Assembly (NCBI GenBank): GCA_015233195.1
Contig: JADFYE010000007.1
Coordinates: forward strand, 8,684-72,683
Direction of reading: 5' to 3'
DNA: 64,000 bases
Origin: Candidatus Omnitrophota bacterium
GTDB lineage: Bacteria > Omnitrophota > Gorgyraeia > Zapsychrales > Zapsychraceae
Part shown: piece after piece, positions 1,530 through 64,000 of the stretch
How positions within the stretch are numbered: position 1 is the stretch's first letter
Layout of the letters: every line of letters begins with the position of its first letter
Notes under the pieces: model-generated
Seen by the model: the letters and a program-made list of their open reading frames with translations, nothing else
What the model was told of the DNA's origin: nothing
Databases searched by the model: none
Made by a program: the position numbers and the translations under genes

Positions 1530-4500
1530 ATGGGGCAAGTTTTTAAAAAATTCATATGTTGTTTAACACTAGTTATGTTTATATTTACTAGTGTTACTCC
1601 GTCTTATGGTCAAAGCGTGTTGAGCGTTCCTGCGCCAACTACTTTAGTTCAGCTTAGTCAGCCGTTTAATCCTCCAATGCTTACAGGTATCAAGGTTCAC
1701 ACAGACAACCCGTTTAGATTTGAGTTTATTTTGGACGCAGGAAATAATAATGATAAAAATAGCGTAGGGGCACGATACTTCGTGCCCGAATCAGCAGATA
1801 TAAAACAAGAAGCTAATCGCTTGATTAAATATTTCCTCGCCTCACTTACTGTCCCTGAAAAAGATTTATGGGTTAACTTATCGCCTTATGAAAAAGACCG
1901 CATTGTGCCGGAAGCGTTTGGTAAGACTGAAATGGGACGAGACCTTTTGGCACAGGATTATTTATTGAAACAACTTACAGCATCGCTTATGTATCCGGAA
2001 GGGGAGATTGGGCGAAAATTTTGGGATAGAATTTATGCAGAAGCTGCTCAAAAATTCGGTACTACTGATATACCAGTTGATACATTTAACAAAGTCTGGA
2101 TTGTGCCGGAAAAAGCAGTGGTGTATGAAAATGCTGAAGCTGGTACGGCATACGTTGTTGAGAGTCATTTGAAGGTGATGACGGAGAAAGATTATAAAGT
2201 CATTCCTTCGCGTACCGCTCAGGATGACAACACCAATAAAATTATAAAATCAGTCATTATTCCCGCGCTTGAACGCGAGGTTAACACCGGCAAGAATTTT
2301 GCCCAGCTTCGCCAAGTCTATAACTCACTCATCCTCGCTACTTGGTATAAAAAGAAAATTAAAGAAAGTATTCTCTCCCAGGTGTATGTAAACAAAAATA
2401 AAGTCGTAGGCGTAAATATAGACGATACCAAAGCCGCAGAAAAAATCTGGGCACAATACGTCGAGACTTTTAAAAAAGGCGCGTACAATTACATTAAAGA
2501 AGAATATGATCCGGTTAATCAAAAAATCATTCCTAAAAAATATTTTTCCGGCGGGTTTACAGCTTTGAATTTAGACGAGGCAATGATAATAGAATCAAAA
2601 GAAGTCCCGTATGATCCCGATGATCCCAATAATCACAACCAATTACAAAAAATAATTATGGATTTGCTTCCGCGCGATACGCCGCCGTTTACGCCTCTAG
2701 CAAGTGTTACTCCAGTGTCAATTAAATCTATACCGCCAATTCACGCACTGGAGCCGATTCCAGCAACCAATCCTTATGCAGGGGCGGTCGTGGTATCAAA
2801 CATAGAACAAGCAATTAAAAACGAAACACCAAATGTTGTTAATTTTACTCCTCAAGTCACGCCTAAAACAAAAAAAGATAAGTTAAATGAAAAATTAGAG
2901 GCATTGCTTGGGATATCCGCTAATGAAAAGCTTAGAAGTTTTATTAGTGACATGCTAAACGAATTATCTTGGGCGGATAATTTTGATTCATTTCTTATTT
3001 CGCAATCAAAATTATTAAGGAATTTACTTTTAGAGATTGGTTTTACATTTTTCGATTTACCTTTAACTCAAAGGCTTCTGGCGTTGGTGATTGAGTGGGC
3101 AATTAATTTAGGAGAAATTAATATTGATCAAATAAATTGGTTTGATGGTTTTTACACCACAAAACCAGTTTTTGCAATTGCAACTACAGCTTTGTCTGGT
3201 TTAGGTGACATAACCAAAATTGACATGGTCATACAAGGGATAAATCAGGAGCTCGAAAAATTGGGAATAAAAGGAGCTAAATTTAAAGTGTTAGCTTTAA
3301 TAAAAGATAAAAGCAGGATTGATATTTTTAAAGACAAACTTCTTGAGATGAAGTCTTTAAACGTTACCTTTGAATTTGTTGAGGATATTATACCTGAAAA
3401 CTCGCCGTTACTGGCTGATGTAGACGCGTTGATCGCGCTGGTTGAGCCGGTAACAACATTTGTAAAATTTGATGAACATCGCTCTCATGCCAGGTCTTCG
3501 CCACTTTTATGCTGGACAATAAATGAATATGATAAGGATATTAATCCTAATACTCGAGACACAGCGTTTAATTTCACAAATTTAAATACTGGATTTGATA
3601 GCCGTAGTATAGGTTTTTTTATTAATCCTTTCGCTGTAGGTTTGTATAACCAAAATTTAGGATTAAATGTAGAAGGTAGAATACAACAAAAAGAGGAACT
3701 TTTACGTCAATCTCTCAGTGAGATCGGGAATAAAATTAACGTACAGCCAATTAATGTAGAGGAGAAAGCCGCACAAGCGGCTGCGACAACTTGGGGATTT
3801 GTTTATATGCATAGGGACGGAGGGCAATATTTGAGGAATTTATTCCAGTATTTTTCAGAACAAAATATTACGGTATTTACTTTTTTTGGGGCTAACAATA
3901 GGTGGGAAAAAGATATAGATGAATTTGTAAAGTTTAAAGTCATAGTAGACGCCTATCGTTTACCAATTGAGATTTATGATTTAAGCGCAGATCCTAACCA
4001 AATTAAGACGATCGATTTTTCAAAACCAGTAATCCGGGTTATCAATTTAGGGGTACGAGATTTGACGACTAATATTCGTTTTATGGCTGCTTCTGATTTA
4101 CCAGTTGGAGTAACCGGAGATGAGAGCTTTGCCGCCGCAGCAACATTGAGGCTGCCATTTGTTTATGAAATGGCTCCTTGGAAATGGGAGTTAGCTTACA
4201 ACATTTCGCAATGGATGCGCCGTATTAATGGAGAACAAGGTAAGGCAAGTAAATTACTTTGGAATTTTATTATTAGGGAGACAGATAGCGCTGAACAGGA
4301 TTTTTTATGGGGCAACTCTCCTAAAAAATATGATGAATTTAAAAGGTTTGGAGATTTTGTGGAAAGCCGACCGCTTTATCCTGATTTGGTTCGGAAAATG
4401 TTAAGGACCTTAGCTTTTTTGCATTTAATGCAGGATAGACAAAACAAGGGTGTTCCTGCAAGTAAAAAAGCATTAGTCGGGGCTTATAATTTTTGGACAA

Positions 4501-7004
4501 AATGTCGGGATTTCTTAAGGCAGACCTTTCAAAGCGGGGATGAAAAATTAAAAAGCTATAAAGTTTATTTAGATTCAGAAAATGATCAGGCGATGCTGCA
4601 ACAAAATAGTGCTAAATTTCTTAGTGAAGCAGACCAGAAAATGTTGGGTGATTTTATTTTGAAGGCTAATGATGGGCGTAGATACAAGTTATTTTTTTAT
4701 AAAAAGCCGAGCAGTGAGGGAAGCTATAAAATTATTATTCGTGAAATTGATCAGAAAGATCAGGTGATTAGAGGACGAAGGAAAGCTGGATATATAGTGA
4801 TATTTCCATTTAATGAAAAAGGCTATAGAAACAGGAATGGTTTTTTTCAATTAATTATCGAAAGATTTGTTTTATTTCAAAAATCACAACAGGGAAAAAG
4901 AATTAGTAGTTCATTTTTGGAAAATTTGCCAAAAGGAACATCATTGCGAGGGAAAAATATCATCAATGAGGCTACGATAGATCAAATGAAAGATGAAGTT
5001 TTTGCTAAATTAAAAGCTACTGCTTCAGATGATGAACTTGTGCGCCTTGAAGAAAACGAACGTTATATTAATAGGGGAAGCGGGAGAGGTAGGGTTGAAA
5101 GTACAGTTCGTTTTTTTATGAATTATCAAGAGGATAAAAAGGTTGATCTTCATTTAAGTGAGATTTTCAGAAATACTCCAATAGGGAAATCATTGGGTTA
5201 TGGCGGTTTTGAAATATCGGATGTGGTAATTGGGGAACAATATATGGGTAGCTTCTATGTGGCTGAATTATCGTACATTGCTCTTAAACCAGTTGATCAG
5301 GCGATGAATCAACAAGAGATCATAATTAATGAAGAGCTTTCAGTAAAAACATCAGATGTTTTTAATGTGCGTTTAAAAGATAATCCTCAAGAAGGAATTC
5401 TGCAGCCGGCAACAGTTGATCGTCGGGAATTTTTAAAAACTGCTGTGGGACTTGCGGCTATTATGGCTTTGCCGGGCTTTTTAAGAGCGGCAGAACCTAA
5501 AAAGAATTTATTACCTGCCGGAAAAAGCGAACCAACCCTTGCTAAGGCGCGGCAGATTGTTTTAGATCATTTAACTGATATTCTTCACTCAGGTAAAATG
5601 TGGACCAATATTCCTTCAACAGAATATTGGCAGGATAATGTTTTTAAAGGCGATAAAACAATGTATTTGTTTGCAATGGACGATATTGAAATTGCGCTGA
5701 AAGCGGGGTTAAAGCCGTATAATGCAGGAGAAAGTTTGAATGCAAAAGAATTCGCCCGGTTAGCCATTCAGGCGATAAAGGAACAGACTGTTGAAGAAAA
5801 ATTAGATAAGTTTTTTTCAGGCAGTTGGTCGAGATATATGGTTGCCTTAGCGAATAACAGTGAAAATATAGAAATTTATGCGGAAGTTATCCGTCAAAGA
5901 GCTAAAGATATAGATCCGATTTTGGGCGCATTGGTTGCTCAATTGGCAGATAATACCAAGGATTGGCAGGTCAAAGATATAGAAAATGTATGGCAAAAAT
6001 TTAATGATTCATTTTTAATACCAAAAGGATATTATGCCAGCGTTTCATCAGCAACGAATAATCTTAAACATCACAAGTTTTATTTCGCGCTAATTTATAA
6101 GATTGAATCCCGGGAGCAGACAGCTTTATCTTCTGGAAGAAAAATCGAAGTGTTGATAGCGCGAAGGCTTGATATTGTTAATTTTGCGGGAAGCCTAGGG
6201 CATACGCAAAAAGGGTTTGACCGGATATTTATTGATTTAGATTCTATCGATTATCAGATAAAAACATTGGCAGGTTATTCTAGAAAAGATTTAGTATCTG
6301 ACGGTGAGAAAGTTTCAGAGAAAGATTTAATTAGTATTGAAAGCTGGGTAAGACAATTCAATAGCAGAGAGAATTTAAAACAATTAATTGTTGATGATAC
6401 CAAAATGCATGAATTGGCGCATAAGCAGTATGATGATCTGAAGAAAAATTTGACAAAAGGTTTTGGCATATATCAATCGAATTTTGATAATCTTCGTGCG
6501 CGAGATCCTCAAGGCACTGATATTATTCAATCTGAAATTTATGCATATCTGACTGAAATCAAGAATGGGAATTTGCCGGGCTTGTCAATTTTTATCCTAT
6601 GGCGAAGTTTTATGAAGCAAGTCCCGACAGCGGAATTTTTTGCCGGATGTTTTATTTTAAATCAATTAACAGGCGATGAGCTGAACCCTAAAAACGGAAT
6701 GCAGCATGTTTTTGAGAGGGTGGCTGAGCTTTTGAATATGCCTAAAATAGAAATTTCAAAAAAAGCAGAAAAAGTGTTACAAGAATTTTTCGCTGATAAG
6801 GCGATGAACATAAGCGATCACACCGGTGGTATTGATTTCACTGCTGATAAGACGCCTTTGGAAATTAAAAATATAGGTAAAGATATCAAATTCAATATAG
6901 ACGCTGCAATGCTGCAGAAACTCCAAAATACTACAGGGTTTGAGCCATTAATAATTGACATCCAGCCAATGACAGATCTAAAAGCTTTTTTGGAATTGAA
7001 ATAG
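1530..7004 (+). CDS. Giant exported modular protein, paralog 1 (~1824 aa), function unknown
   Basis: Long ORF (track 1500-7004). The ATG at 1530 follows gaagggggt (SD) and opens a signal peptide, MGQVFKKFICCLTLVMFIFTSVTPSYGQ. The N-terminal ~350 aa are shared with 21252-28415 and 61639->64000. Confidence 0.85.
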   Translation: MGQVFKKFICCLTLVMFIFTSVTPSYGQSVLSVPAPTTLVQLSQPFNPPMLTGIKVHTDNPFRFEFILDAGNNNDKNSVGARYFVPESADIKQEANRLIKYFLASLTVPEKDLWVNLSPYEKDRIVPEAFGKTEMGRDLLAQDYLLKQLTASLMYPEGEIGRKFWDRIYAEAAQKFGTTDIPVDTFNKVWIVPEKAVVYENAEAGTAYVVESHLKVMTEKDYKVIPSRTAQDDNTNKIIKSVIIPALEREVNTGKNFAQLRQVYNSLILATWYKKKIKESILSQVYVNKNKVVGVNIDDTKAAEKIWAQYVETFKKGAYNYIKEEYDPVNQKIIPKKYFSGGFTALNLDEAMIIESKEVPYDPDDPNNHNQLQKIIMDLLPRDTPPFTPLASVTPVSIKSIPPIHALEPIPATNPYAGAVVVSNIEQAIKNETPNVVNFTPQVTPKTKKDKLNEKLEALLGISANEKLRSFISDMLNELSWADNFDSFLISQSKLLRNLLLEIGFTFFDLPLTQRLLALVIEWAINLGEINIDQINWFDGFYTTKPVFAIATTALSGLGDITKIDMVIQGINQELEKLGIKGAKFKVLALIKDKSRIDIFKDKLLEMKSLNVTFEFVEDIIPENSPLLADVDALIALVEPVTTFVKFDEHRSHARSSPLLCWTINEYDKDINPNTRDTAFNFTNLNTGFDSRSIGFFINPFAVGLYNQNLGLNVEGRIQQKEELLRQSLSEIGNKINVQPINVEEKAAQAAATTWGFVYMHRDGGQYLRNLFQYFSEQNITVFTFFGANNRWEKDIDEFVKFKVIVDAYRLPIEIYDLSADPNQIKTIDFSKPVIRVINLGVRDLTTNIRFMAASDLPVGVTGDESFAAAATLRLPFVYEMAPWKWELAYNISQWMRRINGEQGKASKLLWNFIIRETDSAEQDFLWGNSPKKYDEFKRFGDFVESRPLYPDLVRKMLRTLAFLHLMQDRQNKGVPASKKALVGAYNFWTKCRDFLRQTFQSGDEKLKSYKVYLDSENDQAMLQQNSAKFLSEADQKMLGDFILKANDGRRYKLFFYKKPSSEGSYKIIIREIDQKDQVIRGRRKAGYIVIFPFNEKGYRNRNGFFQLIIERFVLFQKSQQGKRISSSFLENLPKGTSLRGKNIINEATIDQMKDEVFAKLKATASDDELVRLEENERYINRGSGRGRVESTVRFFMNYQEDKKVDLHLSEIFRNTPIGKSLGYGGFEISDVVIGEQYMGSFYVAELSYIALKPVDQAMNQQEIIINEELSVKTSDVFNVRLKDNPQEGILQPATVDRREFLKTAVGLAAIMALPGFLRAAEPKKNLLPAGKSEPTLAKARQIVLDHLTDILHSGKMWTNIPSTEYWQDNVFKGDKTMYLFAMDDIEIALKAGLKPYNAGESLNAKEFARLAIQAIKEQTVEEKLDKFFSGSWSRYMVALANNSENIEIYAEVIRQRAKDIDPILGALVAQLADNTKDWQVKDIENVWQKFNDSFLIPKGYYASVSSATNNLKHHKFYFALIYKIESREQTALSSGRKIEVLIARRLDIVNFAGSLGHTQKGFDRIFIDLDSIDYQIKTLAGYSRKDLVSDGEKVSEKDLISIESWVRQFNSRENLKQLIVDDTKMHELAHKQYDDLKKNLTKGFGIYQSNFDNLRARDPQGTDIIQSEIYAYLTEIKNGNLPGLSIFILWRSFMKQVPTAEFFAGCFILNQLTGDELNPKNGMQHVFERVAELLNMPKIEISKKAEKVLQEFFADKAMNISDHTGGIDFTADKTPLEIKNIGKDIKFNIDAAMLQKLQNTTGFEPLIIDIQPMTDLKAFLELK
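1764..1789 (+). repeat. GTAG-headed hairpin repeat, family A, inside the paralog 1 CDS (in frame, encodes VGARYFVPE)
   Basis: gtaggggcacgatacttcgtgcccga has stem GGGCACGA/TCGTGCCC. It matches the reverse complement of 61754-61779 at 25 of 26 nt. The paralogs lack ~10 aa at this position. Confidence 0.8.
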
Positions 7005-8931: not shown

Positions 8932-10563
8932 ATGCTTAATATCTTATATAAGTATCATATGAAAAGGATATGGGCTTTTTTAAATTCCGGGAAGGGAATA
9001 GGTTGTTTATTTTTTGTGGTCGTGGCAGGGCTTTATTATAAATCGTTTGCTTTTGATTTGACCTATTTTGACGACCAGGTATGGGTGTTGGACTATCAAT
9101 GGTTTTTTGCTAAATGGTCCAATGCTTTAAAGTTTTTTACCGGAGCAGATTTTATATCTGGATGTTTTTACCGTCCGCTTTTAAACCTTACTTTTTTGAT
9201 CGACAGTCAAGTCGGTCATTTTCATTTATGGGCATATCGTTTAACAAATATAATCATTCATGTTAGCGGGGTATGGCTGGTATATAAATTTTTCGAACAT
9301 TTTTTGAAAGATAAAAAACCGGCTTTGATATTAGCTTTGGTTTTTGCGGTTCACCCGACCTTGACTATGGCTGTGGCTTGGCTACCTGGACGGACAGATT
9401 CGCTATTGGGTGTTTTTATTCTTGCTGCGTTTTTGTGTTTTGCCTATTACATAGATAATCCTAAAAAACGGTTTTGGTTAGGTCATGTTTTTTTTATGTT
9501 GTGCGCTTTTTTGACTAAAGAAACAGCGTTGGTTCTGCCTGTGATCTGTTTACTGTATTTATGGATGGTTAAAAAAGAATGGGGAGTTAAAAAGGGTTGG
9601 AGTTTTTGGTTGTTGTGGTTGATAGTTCTACCGGCTTTTCTGATATTACGCAAGTCTATAATGGCTCAGCAGATCACAATTGTTCCTCTGGGCACCTTAA
9701 TCTCGTCATTTTTTGAAAATCTGCCAGCAGTTGTTTTATATTTGGGCAAGACTTTATTGCCTATAAATTTATCGGTCTTACCGATATTGAGGGATGTTAC
9801 TCATTGGTACGGCGTAGTAGTCGCAGCGTTTCTTACGATATTATTTATTTTTACGTCTGAAAAAGATTGGCTTAAAATATCTTTCGGGTTTGTTTGGTTT
9901 TTATTATTTTTGTTACCGTCTTTGGTGATGAGTTTTATAGAGCATGAATACCGTTTGTATTTGCCGCTGCTCGGTATATTGCTGGTGCTTGCCCAGACGG
10001 ATCTTTTCCGTGCCAGCATGAAAAATAAATATGTTTGGGTGTGGGTTTTGATAATAGCTAGCTTAGGTTTAAAAACTTTTTATCACCAGGATAATTTAAA
10101 AAACCGGTTGATTTTTTGGAAAAGCGCGGTTAATGTTGCTCCGCACTCGCCGTTAGCGCACCGTAATTTGGCGGCTATGTATTGTTTGGTAAAAGATTTT
10201 GATAGGGCAGAGCCGGAATTTAAAGAGGCAGCCAGGCTTAATTATAAAGAGCCGATGGTGCATAATAATCTCGGTCTGATTTATATGAATCGGGGTAAAA
10301 ATATAGAAGCAGAGAAAGAGTATTTGTTGGAAATAAAATACAATCAGACTTACGGTAATGTTTATTATAATTATGGGCTTTTGAAATATATGGAAAAACA
10401 ATATCCCGAGGGGGCAAAGCTTTTTGAGCAGGCAATTTTTTATGATCCTAAGCATATGGACGCTGTAAAGATGTTGTTGCAGTATTATCGGTACATAAAA
10501 GATGAGGGTCAAATTAAGCGCATAGAGGATTATTTACGATCAAATGGGGTAAGCGGATTTTAA
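8932..10563 (+). CDS. Polytopic membrane protein with C-terminal TPR repeats (PMT/ArnT-like glycosyltransferase architecture)
   Basis: The first ~400 aa contain about 10 hydrophobic segments. TPR-like repeats follow (LAHRNLAAMYCLVKDFDRAEPEFKEAARLNYKEP, HNNLGLIYMNRGKNIEAEKEY...). An alternative start is at 8959. Confidence 0.5.
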   Translation: MLNILYKYHMKRIWAFLNSGKGIGCLFFVVVAGLYYKSFAFDLTYFDDQVWVLDYQWFFAKWSNALKFFTGADFISGCFYRPLLNLTFLIDSQVGHFHLWAYRLTNIIIHVSGVWLVYKFFEHFLKDKKPALILALVFAVHPTLTMAVAWLPGRTDSLLGVFILAAFLCFAYYIDNPKKRFWLGHVFFMLCAFLTKETALVLPVICLLYLWMVKKEWGVKKGWSFWLLWLIVLPAFLILRKSIMAQQITIVPLGTLISSFFENLPAVVLYLGKTLLPINLSVLPILRDVTHWYGVVVAAFLTILFIFTSEKDWLKISFGFVWFLLFLLPSLVMSFIEHEYRLYLPLLGILLVLAQTDLFRASMKNKYVWVWVLIIASLGLKTFYHQDNLKNRLIFWKSAVNVAPHSPLAHRNLAAMYCLVKDFDRAEPEFKEAARLNYKEPMVHNNLGLIYMNRGKNIEAEKEYLLEIKYNQTYGNVYYNYGLLKYMEKQYPEGAKLFEQAIFYDPKHMDAVKMLLQYYRYIKDEGQIKRIEDYLRSNGVSGF

Positions 10564-11067: not shown

Positions 11068-12417
11068 ATGCGTAGGATAGGAGTACTTTTTTTAGGGGCG
11101 ATTATGGTATTTTCTATCAGTTCAAACGTCCATGCCTCGAAAATAATATTAAAAAACGGTAAAGAAAAGAACGGGACTGTCACAGAGCAAAAGGCTGATT
11201 CAGTCCGGATTGATGTAGAGAATCTCGGAGTTCCGATAACATATTATTTAGACGAGATTGAAAAAATTTATGATGATGAAGGCAAAATTGTATATCCTGC
11301 AGATACTACGGCTGCTCCAGTAAATGCTCCAGCATCAAATGTGCCAGTTGCCTTACCTGGAAAAATAAAAGATGGTCCGTATAAAGTTTTTTATGACAGC
11401 GGTAAATTAAAACAAGAAGTTATGCTTAAAGACGGGAAAAGGGATGGTTTATTTAAAGAATATTTTGAAGGCGGGCAGGTTAAAATTGAAGTTATGTATA
11501 AAGATGATGTGAGGGTTAGTGATTATAAGGAATATTTCGAGGATGGTAAGTTAGCTTACCGCGAGCAATATAAAGACGGTAAAGTCGATGGTTTGATGCA
11601 AGAATATTATCAGAATGGTAATTTGATGCGGGAAATAAATTTTGTGGCAGGGAAAAGAGTTGGGGTAGCTAAAGAATATTATGAAGATGGAAAAATAAAA
11701 AATGAAGTGACTTTTGTTGACGATATCCAAAATGGACCTTATTCCGAATATAATGCGAAAGGTATAAAAAGTGTAGACGGGGAATATAAAAAAGGAATTA
11801 AAGACGGCGCGTTCAAATTCTATTCAGATACTGGTATTTTATTTGCCGACTCAACTTATGTGAATAATAAACAGGTTGGCGCGTATACAGAGTATTTCCC
11901 GAGTGGAAAAGTTAGTGTTGAATTAAATTTTGCTGAGGGTTTAAAGAACGGACCATTTCAAGAGTTTAATGACCAGGGTCAGTTAACTTATAAGGGAACT
12001 TATGCTAATGATAAAGTGTCGGGTGTGGTGCAGGAGTTTAAGGATGGGGTTTTGTTGAAAGAGACTACGTATGATAATGGAAAAAGAAACGGGTCTTATA
12101 AAGAGTTTTACACCGACGGAAAGGCTAAAACCGAAATAGTTTTTAAAGATGACGTCCGGCAGGAATACCGGGAATTTTTTGAAGACGGAAAAGTGCAGTA
12201 TGAAGAACAATATAAAGACGGGAAAGTAAGTGGAGAGGTAAAAGAATATTATGCCAGCGGTAAGCTTTTGAGAGATTTGAATTATGTGGACGGGAAAAAA
12301 GATGGAATATATAAAGAGTATGATGAAGCGGGTAAGCTTTTAATCGAGATAGAATTTAAAGATGATAAAGAGATCAGCCGTAAAACGCCTGATGAAAAGG
12401 CGGAAGGAATAAAATAA
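11068..12417 (+). CDS. Exported MORN-repeat-variant (YwqK-like) repeat protein
   Basis: Signal peptide, then many tandem ~23-aa units of the type YKEYFEDGKL..E..YKDGK.DG. Confidence 0.7.
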   Translation: MRRIGVLFLGAIMVFSISSNVHASKIILKNGKEKNGTVTEQKADSVRIDVENLGVPITYYLDEIEKIYDDEGKIVYPADTTAAPVNAPASNVPVALPGKIKDGPYKVFYDSGKLKQEVMLKDGKRDGLFKEYFEGGQVKIEVMYKDDVRVSDYKEYFEDGKLAYREQYKDGKVDGLMQEYYQNGNLMREINFVAGKRVGVAKEYYEDGKIKNEVTFVDDIQNGPYSEYNAKGIKSVDGEYKKGIKDGAFKFYSDTGILFADSTYVNNKQVGAYTEYFPSGKVSVELNFAEGLKNGPFQEFNDQGQLTYKGTYANDKVSGVVQEFKDGVLLKETTYDNGKRNGSYKEFYTDGKAKTEIVFKDDVRQEYREFFEDGKVQYEEQYKDGKVSGEVKEYYASGKLLRDLNYVDGKKDGIYKEYDEAGKLLIEIEFKDDKEISRKTPDEKAEGIK

Positions 12418-12422: not shown

Positions 12423-12449
12423 GTAGGGACAGCGTCTTCGACCTGTCCG
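12423..12449 (+). repeat. GTAG-headed hairpin, family A variant (3' of the MORN gene)
   Basis: gtagggacagcgtcttcgacctgtccg sits directly after stop TAA + ttttc, the same context as 28421-28447. Confidence 0.6.
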
Positions 12450-21251: not shown

Positions 21252-24200
21252 ATGTTCCGATCTATTTATTTTAAGTCTTGCGCGATTACAGTGTTGATCG
21301 CGTTTCTTATGACAACCGTGTTTCAGACGACAGGCTTTGCCCAAGTGGCAATGTATATGCCTGCGGTTGGCACACAAGTAATGCCCTCAGCATTTTATGA
21401 ACCAGCTAGTGCAGTGGGTATGCAGGTTGATCCTGTAAATCCGTTTCACTTCAATTTCTTCATTGACCGCGGTCAAGACCCGTTAGCCGGTGAAATTGAA
21501 AAGACTGAATATAAAAAATTAGTTAAATATTTTTTAGCCGCATTGACCATCCCTGATAAAAACCAATGGGTCAACCTTTCGCCTTATGAACATAACCGTA
21601 TAGTGCCAACTGATTTCGGTGATACTGAAATGGGTCGCGATCTTTTAGCCCAAGATTATCTTTTAAAACAGTTAACTTCTTCACTTATGTATCCTGAAAA
21701 AGAAATCGGCAAGGTATTTTGGGATAAAATTTACGAAAAAGTCTACGCTAAATACGGACAGAATGCAGAAGTGCCGGTTAATACTTTTAATAAAGTTTGG
21801 ATTACTCCGGATAAAGCGGTTGTGTATGAAGACGGTGATAAAGTTTGGATTATGGAAAGCCATTTGAAGATTATGTTAGAGCAGGATTATATGGCTTTAG
21901 ATAAAAATAAAGACAATTCCCGTTTTGGTTTATCAGCTAATAACAATACTAATTTAAGTGAAACCAGCACTGCCTCGTCTCAAATTGTGCGCGAGATCAT
22001 TGTACCTGCGATTGAAAAGGAAGTTAATACAGGGAAAAATTTTGCTTTATTGCGTCAAGTTTATAAGTCTATGATTCTTTCTGCTTGGTTTAAGAAAAGA
22101 CTTAAAGATCATTTATTATCTCAAGTATATAAAGATAAAGATAAAGTTATAGGCGTGAATTTAGATGATAAACAAGCTAATGAAAAGATTTATCAGCAAT
22201 ATATAGAGTCTTTTAAGACTGGTGTGTTTGACTATATTAAGGAAGAGTACGACCCTGCAAGTCAGACAGTTATTCCTCGTAAATATTTCGCGGGTGGGGG
22301 CGATTTTGCTATGTTAACTACGGATATAGTGAATGTTGTAACTCCGCGATCAGCAACTCCTGCGCAAAGAGCAACATTCGCAGAAGCAGTTAAAGGACTT
22401 GATGGTCGTATAGATATATTAAGTGCTTTGTTTACGGAAAATGATCGGGAGGCTATTGCTGCTACTGCTAAATACAAAAAAGCTCTTGAGACAGTACAGG
22501 CAGTATTGCCTCCTGAAGTGATAGCACATTTAAAGCAGTCGATTATAGATCAGTTAGCAGCAGAGGATGTAAATTTTTCAGAACGCCAAAATGCCATTGA
22601 AGCTGCATTGGTTTTAGCTGTAGCACAGTGGATAGATTTAAATAATAGCTTACACCGTAAAGATGTTGTAGTTATGGATAAGAACGGTAAATTAGCAGTG
22701 GTATCGACTGAGGTGTTATTTAAAAATACACCAGCAGAAATTAATATTGATGAATTAACTAGTTTGGTAATGGGCGGTATCAGATTTTACGCGCATTACG
22801 GTGATGCCGGACTAGCATTAGCTAATAATATAAATTTTGTGTCTGCTATCCAAGCTATGAATCGGGTAGAAGAAAGAGTTATAAGATTAGAAAAAGAGAC
22901 TGATTTGAGTAAATCCGAGGTCTTAATAAGTCAGTTGGAAGATCATTACGACTTGTTTAGGAAGTATTCGGATTTGGTTGTAAAAAATCAGGAACAAGTT
23001 GAAAATGCTTTTGCTGGAAATAAGCAAGTTATTTATCAGTCTGTAACAATAAGGCAGATGTTTAGGAGTTTTGAAAATAATAAATATGATTTAGGCAGAC
23101 GTTCGGGAAAATTATTTCAAAGAATTGATGCTTATAAAAGAACTGCTAAATCAACGTCTAGAACTTCAACAGCTTCGTCTACTACTGGAACTGATGAACG
23201 TACTGCTGAACAAAAAGCTATGGACGCTTGGACGGTAGCTATCTCGCCGATCTTAGATTCTAAAGAGACGGTAACTCCTGAAAAATTAAATCAATTGGCA
23301 GCTCAGATTGCAGATATGGTTTGGGCGCAATTAACACCAGATCAGCAAACTCAATTACCACGACCAGAATTAGAAGGTAAATTAGCAGCTGCTTTAGGAC
23401 AAGTTTTAGATGAATACCAAGCAAAACCAGAGCAGAAGGCTGAAGTAACTGATCTGAAAGTTTTAATACAAAAACTTATTAGTATTTTATTCCCGCAAAA
23501 AGAGTCTGAACCTGCAACTAAACCAGCGGTAAAGGTAGTTGATCTAATAAAGAAGTTGAGTGGATTCGCTAAAGCTGGAAATATGGATGAAAGTGACGTT
23601 CAGTTATTTTTAGGTTTGTTGGATCAGGAAACGTTTATCAGCCTATTCAATAAATATCAGGCGTCTGCAATATATGATGCAATAAAATTTGTAATGAAAA
23701 ATTTGCCTCAAGTGCCAGATGAGGAATTAGTTAAAGCTATTGTTGCAGCAATTAAAACAAAAATAGAACCTGCAGGTAAATCAGAAGAAGAATTAGCTGC
23801 AGAAAAAGCTGCAGAGCAAGCCGCCGCCGCAGCTCAAGCAGTTAAACCAAAGTTAGGAATATGGGGAAAACTAAAAGCTGCAGTAAGAAATGGATATGCG
23901 AATTGGGCAGCAGGAAGACAAGCTAAAGCCGAATTAAGAATGCAAGTTAAAGCCGCAACAGTTACCTGGAAAGAAGTTGCTAGAACCTACCACTTAGATT
24001 ATAAATTTGAATCAGGAACAGCTGGAGATAAATGGGTAGACCAGTTAATGGTTCTTTCTGAAATTCAAAAAAGTGGAGTATCTCGAACAGATCTGTTGGA
24101 AGTTGTAAAAATTACGCTGAATGACGAGTTTATGAAGAACAGGAATAATCTTGAAGGGTCATTCTTATATATTTATAACGAAATTTTGCTAAACATAAAA

Positions 24201-27200
24201 TATTCTATATTACGTGAAAAGGTGTTTTTACAATATTCTGAAGTAATTAATGATTCAGCAGAAAATAAGGTTGAAGCTGTAGCGGATAATATTATTGAAA
24301 CTTTTAAATCTATAGGGTCTAGTCTAGAAATTAATAAACAAATATTAATCGATAACATTAAAGCTAATATTGCTGAACAACAAAATACGATTAAATCAAT
24401 TCCTGAAAATCAGTATGATGCTGTCTATAATCAAGGGTTTGCGGAGTTGGTACGACCGTTGATAGAAGCAGACGCTGCTATGGTTGTAGAAGCAGACGAA
24501 ATGACTGATCTGTTGGTTGCACTTGAACAAAGAGGGATTGTAGCTGATGAGAAAACAATCGCGGAAATTGTTGCAAATATGCCAGAAGTTGATGAACAGC
24601 TAAAAGATTATATTGGTACTGATATTTTGGCTGGTTGGACTATTATTGCTTTAATAAATGGACAAAAAGAAAGTCCGAAACCCGCTGTAACTCCTAAGCC
24701 AGCAGAGGTAGCACCTTCAGCTCGTAGTTTAGTAGAAGGCAGGATAAACAAATTAGTTGGTCAAGAGAGGGTAGATGTATTTTTTGGTTATTTGAGTCAG
24801 CAACCAACGTATAATCTCATATCAGACCACAATTATTCGGAAAATGAAATAAAAGAAGTGATACAAGCGTTACTTACAGCAGGAAAAGAAGTGACCGTGG
24901 TTGGTGTTGTAATGCAACTTATAAGAAACCGACAAGCGCTTATACCAGAGCAATTTAAAGCATTTGTTAATGGTATAGAACAATTAATACCAAACCAATA
25001 TGTAAATCGTAGTGCTTTATTAAATGATTTTTTTGATACTAAAATAAGTCCTCAAAATAAGGAAATGTTAGATCAGCTTTGGGCGGCTTTTGCTGCAGAA
25101 CCTGAAGGACAACAAATGGGTCTTACTCCTGAGGAGGCTAAGGATGCGGTAATAAAAATATTGCTTGATCCTACTAAAACAAAAGATTTTGAAGAAATGT
25201 TAATTAATTTTAATAAATTTCATAGCGAGGTTTTTGCTGCTGCAAAAGCAGAGAGAGCTAAATTACCTCAGAAGTCAGAAAAGTTAAATCAACTTATTGA
25301 TAATTTTTTAGCTCAAACCAAGAGCGTAAAAGATTTTATAAAAGACAATCAGACTTTATGGAATGATTTTATAAACGAGCTTAAAAATTATTATCAGGGA
25401 TCACCGGTGCTGGATATAAAAACGGCTTCTGATGTTGTAGAATACATTTTGGATATGGATTCTGCACCAGCGAGGTTTAAGGAGGATTTTCCAGCGTTTT
25501 TTGAAGCGTTTTTAAAACAATTAAAAGAGGGTGTTCCTGCTGTAAAAGCGGCACGTACACCAGAAGAAGTTTTTACTCAAGGAATGGAAGATTTATTAAT
25601 AGCTGTTCAAGCGGTAGAAAAAGATAGACCAGGAAACGGAGTAATAGTTATAACAGCTTCTAGAGTGAAGAACTTTTTACCGTACTATATGTTAACTGAT
25701 GATAATGTGTCAACTGCAGTGGTTGCTTTAAGGAAGTTCTTTACGGCAAATAAAGCTAAAGCTAAAGCTGACGAGCTGGAAAAGATAAAAGATTTAAAGT
25801 TTTTTAGTTTATTGGGAAAATTTGATAAATCAGAAGTTGATGTACAAAAACAAAATACTGTAAATGTGGTTATAAACGCAATAATATCGAGAATGGAAGT
25901 AATTGATATAGTTGCCCAAAAGGAAAAGTGGGAAACTAAAGATATAATAAGTGAAAGATTGCGTTCAAAAGATCAAGTATTGTCAAAGTCTGCTGGAGTA
26001 GAATTAATAAACCAGATAATGACCTATATTCAAGAAAAAGGTATGCAGCTTACAGAGCAAGAGGTGATTGATGCAATAAAAAGTATTTTTACTTCTGCAG
26101 AAACTACAGAAATGGAAGGCTTTAAGACTAATTATTTAGAATTTTATAAATTAGTGGCTCAACAAGCTATGAAAGACGCGGCCATGATTGTTGTTCCAGA
26201 AAATGTCACAGAGATTATAAGTCTTCTTCGTCAATTATGGGATGGTACAAATATTAATCCTTCCGACCAAGACATTAAGGATGTTTTGGAAAGTATGACA
26301 ATGCCTGCTGGTCTAACGCAGGATAATGATGTTATTGTTGGTATGCTGGCGAATATGTTTTTACAAGCTCAGGAAGCAGGAAATCAACCTGCTGGACAGC
26401 CATCATTATCAAATGATTTAGATGGTTTACAACGCTCTGTAAATGCAAATTCTAAGACTTGGAAAGAAAGAATGGCGCAAGTTGGGCGGTGGGCATTAGG
26501 AGCTACAGGGTTAGGAATGGTTGTGGCAGCGGTTTTAGGTGCAATTGGGTTTTTTAAAAACGTACAACCAGTTGCTCCGGAGGCTGAGAAGCCAGCGGCA
26601 GAGCGCACATTTGATGTTAGTAGATCAAATGCATTAAAAGGTGCAATAAAAGATGGATTGACAGGAAATAACGCAAAAAAAGCAGTTCTTGATTCTTTGA
26701 AAGATAGATATGCAGAATCAGGCACAGCATTTCAGCCGGCAAAGGTAGATGCTAAGGCTCAAGGAATCGCAGATGCTCAATTTGATATTTTACATGCTCG
26801 CAATAGCGATCCAATGTTAGGCAAAAGCTATACTGATGTAGATGGAAAAAAACATGAAGGGCGTAATGCATTCAAAACATTTTTGAGAGACGCTAAGGCG
26901 TCGGGATTTTTTGCTAATATAACGGAAGCTTTTTGGGATGGTATTAATGGGTTAAATGAGGATCAACAGAAAGAATTTTTAGCTGAAATGGCAGCTATTC
27001 AAGGTCAGGTAAAAGAATTATCAGACGGCTTGATAAAAACTTTTGGCGCAGAGCTCGCAGCTTTGCAAGCAGAAGGTCCAAATAAAGAAAATCAGCAGAG
27101 GATACAGGGTCTGAAAGATAGTATCGCTTCATTAAAAGAAAAAAATGATGAAAGTCCAGATGCGATTGTTGGCAAATCTTCAGAGTATTGGCTTACATTA

Positions 27201-28415
27201 AATCGCTTAAAAGAACTTGCAGAGATTTCTAATAAAATGGGAGTTGTAGCAAATATCACTACAGAAGCTTTAGTTCAAGCTGAAGACGCTGGAACAACAA
27301 AAAGTAGTCCTGGTAAAGCAGTGATTTTTTCAAGAGTTTTTGAGGAGGGAACCACCAGCCCTGCAAAAACAGCCGCGGGTAACGCTACAATAGTATATGA
27401 CACACAAGTTCAAGTGGCTAACAATGGTGCGCCGTCTGCATATAAGTATGTTGCAGGGGCAGGTCAAAGATTAAAGGGAGTATTTAATTCCGTAACAGGC
27501 GCAACTTATTCTTTATTGGATAAAGGCGGGAAGGTTGTTACAGGCATGGGCAAAGGATTAAAAACTCTTGCAGGGGTAAAACAAACTACAGCTGGACCAG
27601 TTACTCCAGAAGTCAGTGCTAGGTTGAATGCTTCTTCTAAGTGGATGAAAGCACTTTTAGCTCAAGCAAGGATTGATATTAATGAAAATAATTTTGCTAA
27701 TGTGGCTTTAGCTGATGCAGTACGGGACAGACCCGAACCTGTAAATGTAGGTAGAACAAATCCTTACGGTATAACGGATGCTGATGTTACCAGATTATTA
27801 ATGGCAGTAGGTTATATGCCGGATCAAGGATTGACTCTCGATGATATGGAAGCTATTGTGCATAATGGCAGTGATGAAGATGCAAGATCTCTTTATGAAA
27901 TTGTTTTTGGTGCGCATGTGGTTTTAGCGGGTAATAGCCTTAAGGTTGTTGAGTCTTTTGGAGAGCAGGGAGCAGTTACATTTGAAACACCTGATATAGT
28001 TGCTGTAGGTAGAGGACTAGTTTTTAGAGAAATTTCTAACCCTGGAAAGTCAAAGAAAGAAATACAGAAAAGAGTTGGTGCGATAACGCCAGCCCAGGTG
28101 AGAGACGCTTTATTGGAGGCTATAAAGGAAGAAAGGGCAAAGCGACCAGCAGATAGAGCTATGTTTATCTTTGGTGAGGAAATTAGTTTTTATCCGCAAG
28201 ATGATCCAGTCGGTGGTATCGACATGGATTCAGCAATGTTGAACTTGCAGATTAAACGCGATCCTAATGGCGTACCATTGCCAATGAATTTCCAGGATCC
28301 GGCAATGATGCAGAATTTAAAAGGTTTGATGCCGGTTATTATGGATATAACTAATATGCCGTCGAGTATGCTGCCGAATTTATCAGCAGCAGGTACAGCG
28401 CCGAATCAGGCATAA
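21252..28415 (+). CDS. Giant exported modular protein, paralog 2 (~2387 aa), function unknown
   Basis: The ATG at 21252 follows aaaggag. The signal peptide is MFRSIYFKSCAITVLIAFLMTTVFQTTGFAQ. It shares the N-module with paralogs 1 and 3 and the C-terminal tail with paralog 1. Confidence 0.85.
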   Translation: MFRSIYFKSCAITVLIAFLMTTVFQTTGFAQVAMYMPAVGTQVMPSAFYEPASAVGMQVDPVNPFHFNFFIDRGQDPLAGEIEKTEYKKLVKYFLAALTIPDKNQWVNLSPYEHNRIVPTDFGDTEMGRDLLAQDYLLKQLTSSLMYPEKEIGKVFWDKIYEKVYAKYGQNAEVPVNTFNKVWITPDKAVVYEDGDKVWIMESHLKIMLEQDYMALDKNKDNSRFGLSANNNTNLSETSTASSQIVREIIVPAIEKEVNTGKNFALLRQVYKSMILSAWFKKRLKDHLLSQVYKDKDKVIGVNLDDKQANEKIYQQYIESFKTGVFDYIKEEYDPASQTVIPRKYFAGGGDFAMLTTDIVNVVTPRSATPAQRATFAEAVKGLDGRIDILSALFTENDREAIAATAKYKKALETVQAVLPPEVIAHLKQSIIDQLAAEDVNFSERQNAIEAALVLAVAQWIDLNNSLHRKDVVVMDKNGKLAVVSTEVLFKNTPAEINIDELTSLVMGGIRFYAHYGDAGLALANNINFVSAIQAMNRVEERVIRLEKETDLSKSEVLISQLEDHYDLFRKYSDLVVKNQEQVENAFAGNKQVIYQSVTIRQMFRSFENNKYDLGRRSGKLFQRIDAYKRTAKSTSRTSTASSTTGTDERTAEQKAMDAWTVAISPILDSKETVTPEKLNQLAAQIADMVWAQLTPDQQTQLPRPELEGKLAAALGQVLDEYQAKPEQKAEVTDLKVLIQKLISILFPQKESEPATKPAVKVVDLIKKLSGFAKAGNMDESDVQLFLGLLDQETFISLFNKYQASAIYDAIKFVMKNLPQVPDEELVKAIVAAIKTKIEPAGKSEEELAAEKAAEQAAAAAQAVKPKLGIWGKLKAAVRNGYANWAAGRQAKAELRMQVKAATVTWKEVARTYHLDYKFESGTAGDKWVDQLMVLSEIQKSGVSRTDLLEVVKITLNDEFMKNRNNLEGSFLYIYNEILLNIKYSILREKVFLQYSEVINDSAENKVEAVADNIIETFKSIGSSLEINKQILIDNIKANIAEQQNTIKSIPENQYDAVYNQGFAELVRPLIEADAAMVVEADEMTDLLVALEQRGIVADEKTIAEIVANMPEVDEQLKDYIGTDILAGWTIIALINGQKESPKPAVTPKPAEVAPSARSLVEGRINKLVGQERVDVFFGYLSQQPTYNLISDHNYSENEIKEVIQALLTAGKEVTVVGVVMQLIRNRQALIPEQFKAFVNGIEQLIPNQYVNRSALLNDFFDTKISPQNKEMLDQLWAAFAAEPEGQQMGLTPEEAKDAVIKILLDPTKTKDFEEMLINFNKFHSEVFAAAKAERAKLPQKSEKLNQLIDNFLAQTKSVKDFIKDNQTLWNDFINELKNYYQGSPVLDIKTASDVVEYILDMDSAPARFKEDFPAFFEAFLKQLKEGVPAVKAARTPEEVFTQGMEDLLIAVQAVEKDRPGNGVIVITASRVKNFLPYYMLTDDNVSTAVVALRKFFTANKAKAKADELEKIKDLKFFSLLGKFDKSEVDVQKQNTVNVVINAIISRMEVIDIVAQKEKWETKDIISERLRSKDQVLSKSAGVELINQIMTYIQEKGMQLTEQEVIDAIKSIFTSAETTEMEGFKTNYLEFYKLVAQQAMKDAAMIVVPENVTEIISLLRQLWDGTNINPSDQDIKDVLESMTMPAGLTQDNDVIVGMLANMFLQAQEAGNQPAGQPSLSNDLDGLQRSVNANSKTWKERMAQVGRWALGATGLGMVVAAVLGAIGFFKNVQPVAPEAEKPAAERTFDVSRSNALKGAIKDGLTGNNAKKAVLDSLKDRYAESGTAFQPAKVDAKAQGIADAQFDILHARNSDPMLGKSYTDVDGKKHEGRNAFKTFLRDAKASGFFANITEAFWDGINGLNEDQQKEFLAEMAAIQGQVKELSDGLIKTFGAELAALQAEGPNKENQQRIQGLKDSIASLKEKNDESPDAIVGKSSEYWLTLNRLKELAEISNKMGVVANITTEALVQAEDAGTTKSSPGKAVIFSRVFEEGTTSPAKTAAGNATIVYDTQVQVANNGAPSAYKYVAGAGQRLKGVFNSVTGATYSLLDKGGKVVTGMGKGLKTLAGVKQTTAGPVTPEVSARLNASSKWMKALLAQARIDINENNFANVALADAVRDRPEPVNVGRTNPYGITDADVTRLLMAVGYMPDQGLTLDDMEAIVHNGSDEDARSLYEIVFGAHVVLAGNSLKVVESFGEQGAVTFETPDIVAVGRGLVFREISNPGKSKKEIQKRVGAITPAQVRDALLEAIKEERAKRPADRAMFIFGEEISFYPQDDPVGGIDMDSAMLNLQIKRDPNGVPLPMNFQDPAMMQNLKGLMPVIMDITNMPSSMLPNLSAAGTAPNQA

Positions 28416-28420: not shown

Positions 28421-28447
28421 GTAGGGGCGGGTTTATAACCCGCCCGA
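28421..28447 (+). repeat. GTAG-headed hairpin repeat, family A (intergenic, directly 3' of paralog 2)
   Basis: gtaggggcgggtttataacccgcccga, stem GGGCGGG/CCCGCCC. Confidence 0.75.
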
Positions 28448-61638: not shown

Positions 61639-64000
61639 ATGGCGCATCAGCAGAATTTTTTTATTAACCGGGGTGTATTATTTATTGTATTAGTTACTTT
61701 TTTTGTAACTAATATTATGCCGGTTTCGTATGCCCAGACTGTTATGCCGGTTATCGGGCACGAATTATCGTGCCCCTACAAATCTACCGTTTTTACACCA
61801 GTCTTGATTAAAGGCGTGACTGTTTATCCTAAAGAACCTTTGCGTTTTAACTTTATCGTCGATTCTGGCACATCAAAAGACGCGGATGATGCTATTAAAA
61901 AACAAGCGCAAAAAATGGTGAATTATTTTTTGGCTGCATTAACTGTTCCGCAAAAGGATTTATGGGTCAATCTTTCTCCGAATGAACCAGATAGAATAAT
62001 TCCGCAAGAATTAAGCAAAACTAATTTAGGCGTTGATCTTTTAGCGCAGGATTATTTGTTAAAACAATTAACTGCCTCGCTCCTGGATCCTGATGGAGAA
62101 GCAGGACGAAAGTTTTGGGAAGCGATATATGCGAAAGTATATGCATTACACCTTCCCCCCAACAAAAGTACGGGGGTGGGGAAGGGTAGGGAAGGGGGGA
62201 AAGATTTTGATATTCCAGCCGATATTTTTAACAAAGTCTGGATCGTACCGGAGAGCGCAACGATATACGAAAATGGCAATGGTTCGACAAGCTCACCAGG
62301 GGCTACGGTTTATATCGTCGAAAGTCGACTGAAAGTAATGACTGATGTTGACTATTCTGAACACCTTCCCCCCAACAAAAGTACGGGGGTGGGGAAGGGT
62401 AGGGTAGGGGGGATCACAGCAGATATAATAAAACAAATTATACTCCCTGAAATCGAACGTGAAGTTAATGAAGGCGAGGGATTTGCTCAGCTTCGCCAAA
62501 TCTATCACGCCTTGATTCTCGCTAAATGGTATAAAGAAACAGTCCGCAATAGTATTCTATCGCAAGTGTACGTTGATAAAAATAAAACTTCCGGCGCAGG
62601 TAATGTGGATCCTCGAGCTAAAGAGCAAATTTACCAGGAGTATTTGGCTGCTTTTAAAAAAGGAGCATTCGCGAAAATCAAAGAAGAATACGACCCGCAA
62701 GAGCAGAAAATCATTCCCAGGAAATATTTTTCAGGCGGATTTACTGACGATGGACAAATGAAAATGAAACTTGCAGATCAAGCCGCGCTAACAAAAATTC
62801 ATACGGGGCGCACATTTCAAATGCCGGTTAAACTTAATCCAGAAACAGACCGCGCCTCATTAGCCGAAGAAAAAGACTGCAAGGAAGCTTTAAAATGGAA
62901 GAGAGCAGTTCCGGGAATTAAATTTTGGACGGCAGATCAGATCGTTCAGAAGAGTAAAGAAGCACTTAAACGGAAGCCAGTAAATCTTGGTTTTTTAGAG
63001 GCCAGTATTCTTATGTTAGATGAAGAGGACAAGAGGAGAGTTTTGCGTGAAATGCCGAAGTATGGACATGATCTCATTTTAACAGGACGAATGCTGGATT
63101 TGGCTAGTCGAAGGACTATGTTTGATGATGATCAAAAATATAGATTTTTTAAGTCATTTTTGGTTTTTGATGAGATGTGGTCAAAGGTCAAATCTATAAA
63201 AGGTATGACGGGCAGATTTGAATTTCTTTTTCCTAAGTCGGTCAAATATTATGCTCACAATTATGATGGAATTAAATCAGCGGATAAATTTTTAGCCATT
63301 GCTAAAAAAATAAAACTTTGGGGACACGGGTTTGGTAATTTTCATATGAGTGAGGCTGCTTATCATGGGGGTTATACGTTAGATCATCAATGGGCGATGC
63401 TTGAGGTAATGTTGACCCGGTGGGAAAGAGGAGCATTTGAAGTGTTTAAAGATTTTGGTTCATTTTTATCAACAGAAGGATACGGTCCGTATTTTATGAT
63501 TGACCGGAATCATAGTAGGAAGAATGTTTCGTTGGAACAATTAAATCAAGAAGCTTTATTTGTTGTGCCGCTGGGTTTGGACCTGGAATTTTTCCGTCAG
63601 GGATTATTGGTTGCAGTTGAGAAAAATTTGATCTCCCGTGAAAAAGCAGTGGATGTGTATACCCGTATTGTGACGATGAAGGAAGTGGTGGATTATGAAA
63701 CAAAAGCGGATGCTCGCGCCATGTTCACGCCTGAGTGGCATAGTAAGAGGAATATTGATAAGCCGGTTAAAGTAAATTCAAAAATAGATCGCGCCATGAT
63801 AATTGATGATGAGGATATGATACATCTTCAAGAAAAATATAAGAGAATGACCGCGCTTGTAAAAGTGTTTGGCGAATATCTCCCTGAAACCTACACAGGT
63901 CAGAAAATAAGAGTGGCTGAACTCCTATATAAAATGGAAAAAGAGATGCCGGAGCTGATTAAGAAATTATCAATGTCGGCTGATCTTAAAGGTGAGATAT
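61639..64000 (+). CDS. Giant exported modular protein, paralog 3 (first ~787 aa; continues beyond the right edge; absent from the ORF track)
   Basis: I translated frame 1 by hand from the ATG at 61639 and found no stop to position 64000. The signal peptide is MAHQQNFFINRGVLFIVLVTFFVTNIMPVSYAQ. It shares the N-module with paralogs 1 and 2 (LWVNLSPNEPDRIIP, DLLAQDYLLKQLTASL, FNKVWIVPE, EREVNEGEGFAQLRQIY, IKEEYDPQEQKIIPRKYFSGGF). Confidence 0.85.
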   Translation, partial: MAHQQNFFINRGVLFIVLVTFFVTNIMPVSYAQTVMPVIGHELSCPYKSTVFTPVLIKGVTVYPKEPLRFNFIVDSGTSKDADDAIKKQAQKMVNYFLAALTVPQKDLWVNLSPNEPDRIIPQELSKTNLGVDLLAQDYLLKQLTASLLDPDGEAGRKFWEAIYAKVYALHLPPNKSTGVGKGREGGKDFDIPADIFNKVWIVPESATIYENGNGSTSSPGATVYIVESRLKVMTDVDYSEHLPPNKSTGVGKGRVGGITADIIKQIILPEIEREVNEGEGFAQLRQIYHALILAKWYKETVRNSILSQVYVDKNKTSGAGNVDPRAKEQIYQEYLAAFKKGAFAKIKEEYDPQEQKIIPRKYFSGGFTDDGQMKMKLADQAALTKIHTGRTFQMPVKLNPETDRASLAEEKDCKEALKWKRAVPGIKFWTADQIVQKSKEALKRKPVNLGFLEASILMLDEEDKRRVLREMPKYGHDLILTGRMLDLASRRTMFDDDQKYRFFKSFLVFDEMWSKVKSIKGMTGRFEFLFPKSVKYYAHNYDGIKSADKFLAIAKKIKLWGHGFGNFHMSEAAYHGGYTLDHQWAMLEVMLTRWERGAFEVFKDFGSFLSTEGYGPYFMIDRNHSRKNVSLEQLNQEALFVVPLGLDLEFFRQGLLVAVEKNLISREKAVDVYTRIVTMKEVVDYETKADARAMFTPEWHSKRNIDKPVKVNSKIDRAMIIDDEDMIHLQEKYKRMTALVKVFGEYLPETYTGQKIRVAELLYKMEKEMPELIKKLSMSADLKGEI
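61754..61779 (-). repeat. GTAG-headed hairpin, family A, inverted orientation, inside the paralog 3 CDS (encodes IGHELSCPY)
   Basis: The reverse complement of tcgggcacgaattatcgtgcccctac is gtaggggcacgataattcgtgcccga, which matches 1764-1789 at 25 of 26 nt. Confidence 0.8.
62149..62199 (+). repeat. 51-nt hairpin + G-rich tail repeat, family E, copy 1, in frame in paralog 3 (HLPPNKSTGVGKGREGG)
   Basis: caccttccccccaacaaaagtacgggggtggggaagggtagggaagggggg, stem CCTTCCCC/GGGGAAGG. Confidence 0.85.
62362..62412 (+). repeat. Family E, copy 2, in frame in paralog 3 (HLPPNKSTGVGKGRVGG)
   Basis: It is identical to copy 1 except for one nt (a/t), lies 213 nt downstream, and is in the same codon phase. 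Confidence 0.85.

Follow-up and report, generated by a model that had tools for sequence, protein, structure and literature searches.

Four short hairpins headed by GTAG were found in a 64,000-nt stretch of contig JADFYE010000007.1 from a Candidatus Omnitrophota bacterium (assembly GCA_015233195.1; hereafter the window, numbered from its first letter). Judged by their sequences, they are probably repetitive extragenic palindromic (REP) elements of the canonical long type associated with subclass 2.4 of the TnpA-REP enzymes, also called REP-associated tyrosine transposases (RAYTs); we put the probability of this assignment at about 0.78, and conclude from cross-genome evidence that a RAYT-type Y1 enzyme probably spread the four hairpins, now or in the past. 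The evidence consists of sequence identity between copies, predicted hairpins, a shared core dispersed over many genomes, and the physical association of this core with RAYT genes.

Scanning both strands of the window for GTAGG revealed exactly four sites with GTAGGG and a hairpin, at 1764 (+), 12423 (+), 28421 (+) and 61779 (-), numbered here as copies 1 to 4, compared with a mean of 0.11 sites in 100 dinucleotide-preserving shuffles of the 64-kb window. Copy 1 (1764-1789, + strand; GTAGGGGCACGATACTTCGTGCCCGA) and copy 4 (the reverse complement of 61754-61779; GTAGGGGCACGATAATTCGTGCCCGA) are identical at 25 of 26 nt, with the sole mismatch located in the loop, while copies 2 and 3 are variants that carry TTTCGTAGGG heads on other stems. 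A GTAG 5' foot directly abuts the stem in all four copies, and the stem base in copies 1, 3 and 4 is GGG...CCC, comprising three G-C pairs. The stems of the window copies are 8-9 pairs long, and the GTAG in front of them is unpaired. Folding of copies 1, 2, 3 and 4 as single-stranded DNA (ssDNA) gave energies of -10.1, -6.4, -11.5 and -10.1 kcal/mol, with z-scores of -4.5, -2.6, -4.5 and -5.1, respectively. The copies are singletons at least 10 kb apart, and are not paired as doublets of the REPIN or bacterial interspersed mosaic element (BIME) kind.

Copies 2 and 3 occupy the usual REP position, downstream of coding regions. Each begins 5 nt past a TAA stop codon, that of an open reading frame (ORF) at 11068-12417 for copy 2 and that of the paralog 2 ORF (21252-28415) for copy 3, within the common context TAA-N-TTTC-GTAGGG. 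Because they lie 5 nt after stop codons and in sense orientation, both are probably transcribed into mRNA 3' ends. The sequences that follow them, GTTCCAAAC after copy 2 and GATGAAAAAC after copy 3, are not T-runs. Intrinsic (Rho-independent) terminators were considered and rejected, since T-runs are absent after the hairpins and a terminator scan gave no terminator-like site at copy 3. An Rfam scan of the window at gathering scores yielded two tRNAs only, with no match to any of the hairpins.

To place the stem of copies 1 and 4 in other genomes, one genome per GTDB species was scanned for the core GTAGGGGCACGA-N4-TCGTGCCC, a 24-nt sequence that contains the exact stem of these two copies. 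The following figures refer to the 120 stretches listed among the matches, and the counts are lower bounds. The core was found at at least 129 sites in at least 98 assemblies from about a dozen phyla. According to the record titles, the hosts include Acidobacteriota, Chloroflexota, Thermodesulfobacteriota and other Deltaproteobacteria, Atribacterota, Bacteroidota and Bacillota, together with Cyanobacteria, Verrucomicrobiota, KSB1, Gemmatimonadales, Thermoleophilia and one Omnitrophota genome (L060), in which the core lies 14 nt past a stop codon in sense orientation. The flanks are unrelated at every site. Perfect 28-nt palindromes of the double-foot form (GTAG...CTAC) account for 61 sites, and the other 68 have a single GTAG. 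Pairs of sites within an assembly share an identical loop variant in 52% of cases, versus 14% for pairs between assemblies, the pattern that amplification within genomes would produce. The same loci also carry GTAG hairpins with other stems, including GTAGGGGCGGGTTTGAAACCCGCCCGA, which is nearly identical to copy 3. On a Chloroflexota chromosome (L056, 6358-6953), a longer tandem repeat contains three copies of the palindrome, with a period of 284 nt.

Two further collections were scanned. In the viral-contig collection, the core was present in 17 stretches (L127-L143), in two of which (L128 and L134) it forms inverted pairs about 40 nt apart; no RAYT genes were found near the core in these viral loci. 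A scan of the metagenome collection with the window-specific variant GTAGGGGCACGATANTTCGTGCCCGA returned a single match, on an unrelated high-GC contig (L122). In this contig, a histidine-kinase gene ends at the REP (365-390), with the TAG of the GTAG foot as its stop codon, and a second GTAG hairpin follows about 40 nt on.

To relate the core to RAYT genes, E. coli RayT from MG1655 was used as a query against all ORFs of the fetched core loci. At three of these loci, a RAYT-like ORF carries the palindrome in frame, immediately behind its HUH motif, MPNHxHGI. The match of E. coli RayT to these ORFs is weak (E = 1.5e-6 for L005, 0.011 for L017). With the Pfam model Y1_Tnp (cut-off 23 bits), the L017 ORF passes at 30.4 bits and the L005 ORF falls below at 18.3; with the NCBIfam model REP_Tyr_transpos (cut-off 80 bits), both score 65-70 bits and remain below. 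A database search with an alignment of the palindrome-bearing ORFs gave E < 1e-5 for 7,999 of 8,000 scored candidates, revealing a very large family. The palindrome is encoded at the same spot in 111 of the 120 best homologues, of which 92 show an RGTxxRAPT-like peptide and/or 23 a VGARxxVPL-like one; the remaining nine match neither pattern, and those inspected hold degenerate versions. RGTxxRAPT and VGARxxVPL both derive from a single DNA palindrome, GTAGGGGCACG...CGTGCCCCTAC, which is open in these two frames and reads TAG as a stop in the third. What is conserved is therefore the DNA and not the protein sequence. The association with RAYT genes holds for the GGGCACGA stem, that is, for copies 1 and 4.

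Some RAYT homologues (P0208, P0134, P0141 and P0149) show tandem expansion at the REP site, such as some 25 repeats of PPHGM in a protein of Thermosynechococcus, which suggests that the internal REP site in these homologues is unstable. Because a subclass 2.4 RAYT gene has its own REP within its coding sequence, transfer of this gene alone might introduce the same REP into another genome, an idea that we consider unlikely. If true, it would explain the occurrence of an identical 24-nt core in about a dozen phyla, including Omnitrophota.

We infer RAYT activity in this genome, possible effects on mRNA and, from other systems, a likely mechanism of transposition. As summarised by Corneloup et al. 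(2021), TnpA-REP enzymes bind folded single-stranded REPs, require GTAG, and cleave and join DNA in vitro (PMC8266576). In the proposed pathway, a RAYT-family Y1/HUH enzyme, encoded elsewhere in the genome or formerly in the lineage, would bind the folded hairpin on ssDNA and recognise the GTAG foot, followed by cleavage and rejoining of the strand to give new copies. Copies landing in genes would survive only where the frame is kept, the frame with the TAG stop is avoided and a tolerant loop is hit, and survival of this sort, in flexible regions, is the best explanation for the intragenic copies 1 and 4. Copies 2 and 3 would lie in mRNA 3' ends, where REPs of other bacteria influence how stable the mRNA is and how translation terminates. 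In E. coli, Liang, Rudd and Deutscher (2015) reportedly described interference with translation termination by REPs located no more than about 15 nt from a stop codon.

Several observations weigh against the REP assignment and the role of a RAYT. The window holds only four copies, all of them singletons, with three different stems. Classical REP families consist of many near-identical copies and inverted pairs. The stem of copy 2 is weak, its base being GGA...TCC, with two G-C pairs followed by an A-T pair. The window's own copies are absent from the metagenome collection scan, and in a sample of about 67 kb from four further Omnitrophota genomes, GTAGGG REPs were present at one site only. As an earlier note on this DNA had reported, the window lacks a RAYT gene: phmmer searches with E. 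coli RayT and subclass-2.4-type proteins found no RAYT-like ORF in it, and a hidden Markov model built from 121 RAYT sequences gave a best match of E = 0.03 (8.6 bits). In addition, RAYT mobilisation of REPs has been shown only as in vitro cleavage and strand transfer, with three proteobacterial enzymes; RAYT-driven REP transposition has never been demonstrated in vivo in any organism, and how REPs spread in cells is not known (PMC8266576). The same note had proposed a REP-type identity, and the head, stem architecture and dispersal indeed match published GTAG REPs (PMC3733652, PMC6006769), with the core built into RAYT-like genes. Its use of a GTAG head plus palindrome as a REP hallmark stands; its restriction of this hallmark to gamma-proteobacteria does not, since GTAG REPs have been described in several phyla; intragenic copies are on record as well.

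The hairpins could alternatively have evolved locally as functional structures, such as mRNA 3'-end protectors, ribosome-pausing hairpins or protein-binding sites, kept by selection and not mobile. This would fit the location of copies 2 and 3 and the L060 copy, all 5-14 nt past a stop codon in sense orientation, and the retention of a hairpin while stems differ. It would not, however, account for copies 1 and 4, which are near-identical on opposite strands, inside coding regions and at non-homologous sites, or for the 24-nt core, which recurs between unrelated flanks in many phyla and also within RAYT genes; the hairpins also lack a following T-run and any Rfam family match. We regard this explanation as improbable, and a local function would in any case be compatible with a REP origin.

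A second alternative is that the hairpins are remnants or miniature derivatives of IS200/IS605-type elements, which are palindrome-associated transposable elements, and were mobilised by TnpA-IS200 and not by a RAYT. The ends of such elements are likewise hairpins recognised on ssDNA by a related Y1 enzyme (PMC6006769; PMC8266576), and the RAYT-like ORFs described above also score weakly with the IS200 model. The window elements, however, are just 26-27 nt long, with a single hairpin per site and no second, distinct end. They have no adjacent tnpA or tnpB, and no Y1 or TnpB-like ORF was found next to the hairpins in the window. The GTAG foot abutting a stem that starts with GGG is a REP signature, and the palindrome-carrying enzymes score far better as RAYTs (65-70 bits for two ORFs) than as an IS200 transposase (20 bits for the L017 ORF). 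An IS200/IS605 origin thus seems quite improbable.

The genes that host copies 1 and 4 were then compared with their relatives. The window has a G+C content of 38.7%, and the closest proteins to its large ORFs come from metagenome-assembled genomes (MAGs) of Candidatus Omnitrophica/Omnitrophota, with best identities of only 62-65%; a search of the protein collection returned no protein identical to them, and an exact-match query with the protein of ORF 11068-12417 likewise gave no record. Three of the ORFs are paralogs that share 48-52% identity across their N-terminal 400 residues, each with a signal peptide, and their N-terminal domain is common to more than 1,600 proteins. A Pfam scan of the three paralogs matched no family, and a PDB fold search with a model of the first 400 residues of paralog 1 (predicted local distance difference test score, pLDDT, 70.7) gave no match.

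Translation of copy 1 gives VGARYFVPE (paralog 1 residues 79-87; ORF start 1530), in a loop between the FEFILDA strand and the next helix. Residues 70-88 are modelled as coil, with pLDDT below 50 for residues 78-84, and the other two paralogs and most homologues are shorter at this point by about 11 residues. Copy 4 translates as IGHELSCPY (paralog 3 residues 39-47; ORF start 61639) and lies truly within the coding sequence, because an in-frame signal peptide precedes it. When the three paralogs were aligned with 120 homologues, the sites of copies 1 and 4 fell about 45 positions apart, with copy 4 upstream, and are therefore non-homologous. Neither peptide is present in any of the 120 homologues, so an ancestral protein motif is excluded and the element arose long after the paralogs split; copies 1 and 4 differ by 1 nt, versus only about 50% identity between their host paralogs. 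The earlier note's account of these sites was thus upheld: the same 26-nt hairpin in opposite orientations at non-homologous positions of two paralogs, some 10 extra residues in paralog 1, and variants right after two stop codons. The case it had named as a refutation, an ancestral peptide conserved in homologues, was found in 0 of 120. A conserved peptide motif or gene conversion between paralogs, suggested by the presence of both copies in the N-terminal domain of one family, is very improbable and is refuted by the strand and position data, given the opposite strands, unrelated peptides, non-homologous positions, absence from the homologues, and intergenic related copies.

In paralog 3, the REP-encoded G...LS.P (61753-61779) aligns with the conserved G, L-S and P of the family, with a net gain in length of about 2 residues. 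In the homologue L123, the REP head GTAGGGGAC at 10274-10290 also encodes V-G-D of the conserved LDxGD motif. These overlaps with conserved residues could reflect replacement through microhomology, or merely the coding of Gly and Pro, both loop residues, by GGG and CCC.

The loop after the FILDxGD strand, which holds copy 1, has a standard length in 71 of 115 homologues and is extended in 32, mostly by peptides of the translated palindromic-repeat type. These extensions derive from at least five palindromic-repeat families (VIARSEATKQS, VIPAKAGIH, GHGVETQNFASLR, GSKPSxxGRVxNPxLRE, SSPNAxVGDL, LPHRGEGKGGG). The inserts were checked on the DNA of four homologues (L123-L126, Table 1). On the sequences compared, the loop is a hot spot of in-frame repeat insertion. 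The simplest reading of the inserts is tolerance, in which a disordered loop in a family of thousands offers many chances for an insertion to survive. That the loop is a preferred landing site for small palindromic repeats in Omnitrophota, and not merely a tolerant one, we consider unlikely; if true, the inserts would be a source of surface-loop diversity, or 5'-end coding hairpins that tune translation or secretion. The recurrent inserts provide a natural data set for asking whether REP insertion is shaped by tolerance alone or by target choice as well.

The assignment would add Omnitrophota, a little-known phylum represented mostly by metagenomes, to the hosts of GTAG-type REPs and would imply RAYT activity there. 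Copies 1 and 4 are clean examples of intragenic REP survival in both orientations. For annotation, VGARYFVPE, IGHELSCPY, RGTxxRAPT and VGARxxVPL would be treated as translated repeats and not as protein motifs. The current understanding of REPs is unchanged by these results.

Table 1 Coordinates of the REP copies, their host genes and related features (window positions unless a locus is named).
Feature	Position	Strand	Description
REP copy 1	1764..1789	+	unpaired GTAG foot, stem GGGCACGA/TCGTGCCC, loop TACT, tail GA; in frame in paralog 1
REP copy 2	12423..12449	+	GTAG, stem GGACAG(c)GTC/GACCTGTCC, one bulge; intergenic, sense orientation; weakest of the four
REP copy 3	28421..28447	+	GTAG, stem GGGCGGGTT/AACCCGCCC, loop TAT, tail GA; intergenic, sense orientation, after paralog 2
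REP copy 4	61754..61779	-	copy 1 element with loop TAAT; in frame in paralog 3, directly after the signal peptide
Paralog 1	1530..7004	+	host of copy 1; large secreted protein, about 1824 aa
Paralog 2	21252..28415	+	about 2387 aa; REP-free inside, copy 3 past its stop codon
Paralog 3	61639..64000	+	host of copy 4; extends beyond the window end
Intergenic repeat (four copies)	30969-31007, 31082-31118, 47351-47389, 52976-53012	+, -, +, +	CCCTCTCC-loop-GGAGAGGG(T)TAGGGTGAGGGG
Loop insert, L123 (Omnitrophota)	10280-10350		inverted GTAGGG hairpin pair in frame in the copy 1 loop: GTAGGGGACGGTTCTAAACCGTCCC, 5 nt, GGGCGGGTTATGAATCCGTCCCTAC
Loop insert, L124	about 10247-10280		GTCATTGCAAGGAGCGAAGCGACGAAGCAATC
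Loop insert, L125	about 10230-10257		GTCATTCCCGCGAAAGCGGGAATCCAT
Second hairpin, L125	10732	-	same hairpin as the loop insert, with a GTGG foot, deeper in the gene
Loop insert, L126 (homologue P0005)	about 10205-10245		C-rich/G-rich loop element
Palindrome-bearing RAYT-like ORF, L005			Deltaproteobacteria MAG
Palindrome-bearing RAYT-like ORF, L017			Chloroflexia MAG
Palindrome-bearing RAYT-like ORF, L109			Rhodothermales MAG

Other repeats were observed in the window. Paralog 3 contains two in-frame copies of an L126-type repeat, at 62148-62199 and 62361-62412, with 44 nt identical; the sequence, ACACCTTCCCCCCAACAAAAGTACGGGGGTGGGGAAGGGTAGGG..., encodes HLPPNKSTGVGKGR(E/V)GG and has no counterpart in paralogs 1 and 2. 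It has a C-rich and a G-rich arm separated by a loop, plus additional G-runs, and could form a hairpin or a G-quadruplex. The intergenic repeat family shares this architecture with the paralog 3 repeat and with the loop insert of P0005 (L126), and one pair of its copies is inverted around about 100 bp at 30969/31118. A GC-rich perfect palindrome with the core CGTAACCCCGGGGTTACG occurs at 19452-19470, directly upstream of a tRNA-Ala/tRNA-Leu pair (19554-19734), and again at 41145-41177, where the arms are 15 bp long.

Among known systems, subclass 2.4 REPs were described by Quentin, Siguier, Chandler and Fichant (2018) as canonical long, with a 5' GT[AG]G foot and a stem bottom of three G-C pairs, and double-foot REPs ending in the reverse complement of the foot were also reported (PMC6006769). 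The elements described here resemble them in the GT[AG]G foot at the hairpin base, the base of three G-C pairs, the single- and double-foot forms, and the patchy distribution across many phyla. Unlike those REPs, the window copies end in CCCGA and not in CTAC or a free tail, with three stems among four copies, and the 64-kb window yielded no cognate tnpA-REP gene. Omnitrophota are not named as subclass 2.4 hosts in the part of that paper available (PMC6006769). Di Nocera, De Gregorio and Rocco (2013) defined a GTAG-tagged REP superfamily in several phyla, with 24 family consensus sequences, and reported REPs inside genes for known proteins, most abundantly in Opitutus terrae (Verrucomicrobia, PVC group) (PMC3733652). 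That superfamily and the window copies have in common the GTAG tag, stems of 6-13 bp, short loops, a location mostly downstream of coding regions, and some in-frame copies that add short peptides (PMC3733652), whereas the host genes here belong to a family of giant secreted proteins that is specific to Omnitrophota.

The REP/BIME elements of E. coli and their enzyme RayT (YafM), of TnpA-REP subclass 2.2, likewise combine a GTAG foot with a hairpin and a Y1/HUH enzyme that binds and cleaves the folded single-stranded REP in vitro (PMC8266576). In contrast to the window copies, E. coli REPs have longer, bulged stems and number in the hundreds, arranged as BIMEs. REPINs, according to Bertels and Rainey (2011), are said to be REP-derived inverted doublets of Pseudomonas, thought to be mobilised by RAYTs. 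An inverted doublet was also seen in frame in the Omnitrophota homologue L123, and others in the viral loci L128 and L134, unlike the four widely spaced singletons of the window. The palindromic elements of Rickettsia (Ogata et al., 2000) reportedly occur in an alpha-proteobacterial lineage and are mostly about 100-150 bp long. They too lie in frame in protein-coding genes without destroying them, but differ from the 26-27-nt window copies in their length and lineage. Literature searches for the palindrome, its peptides and REPs in Omnitrophota returned nothing relevant. This kind of REP and intragenic GTAG REPs are already known; what is new is that they occur in Omnitrophota and in the host genes described here.

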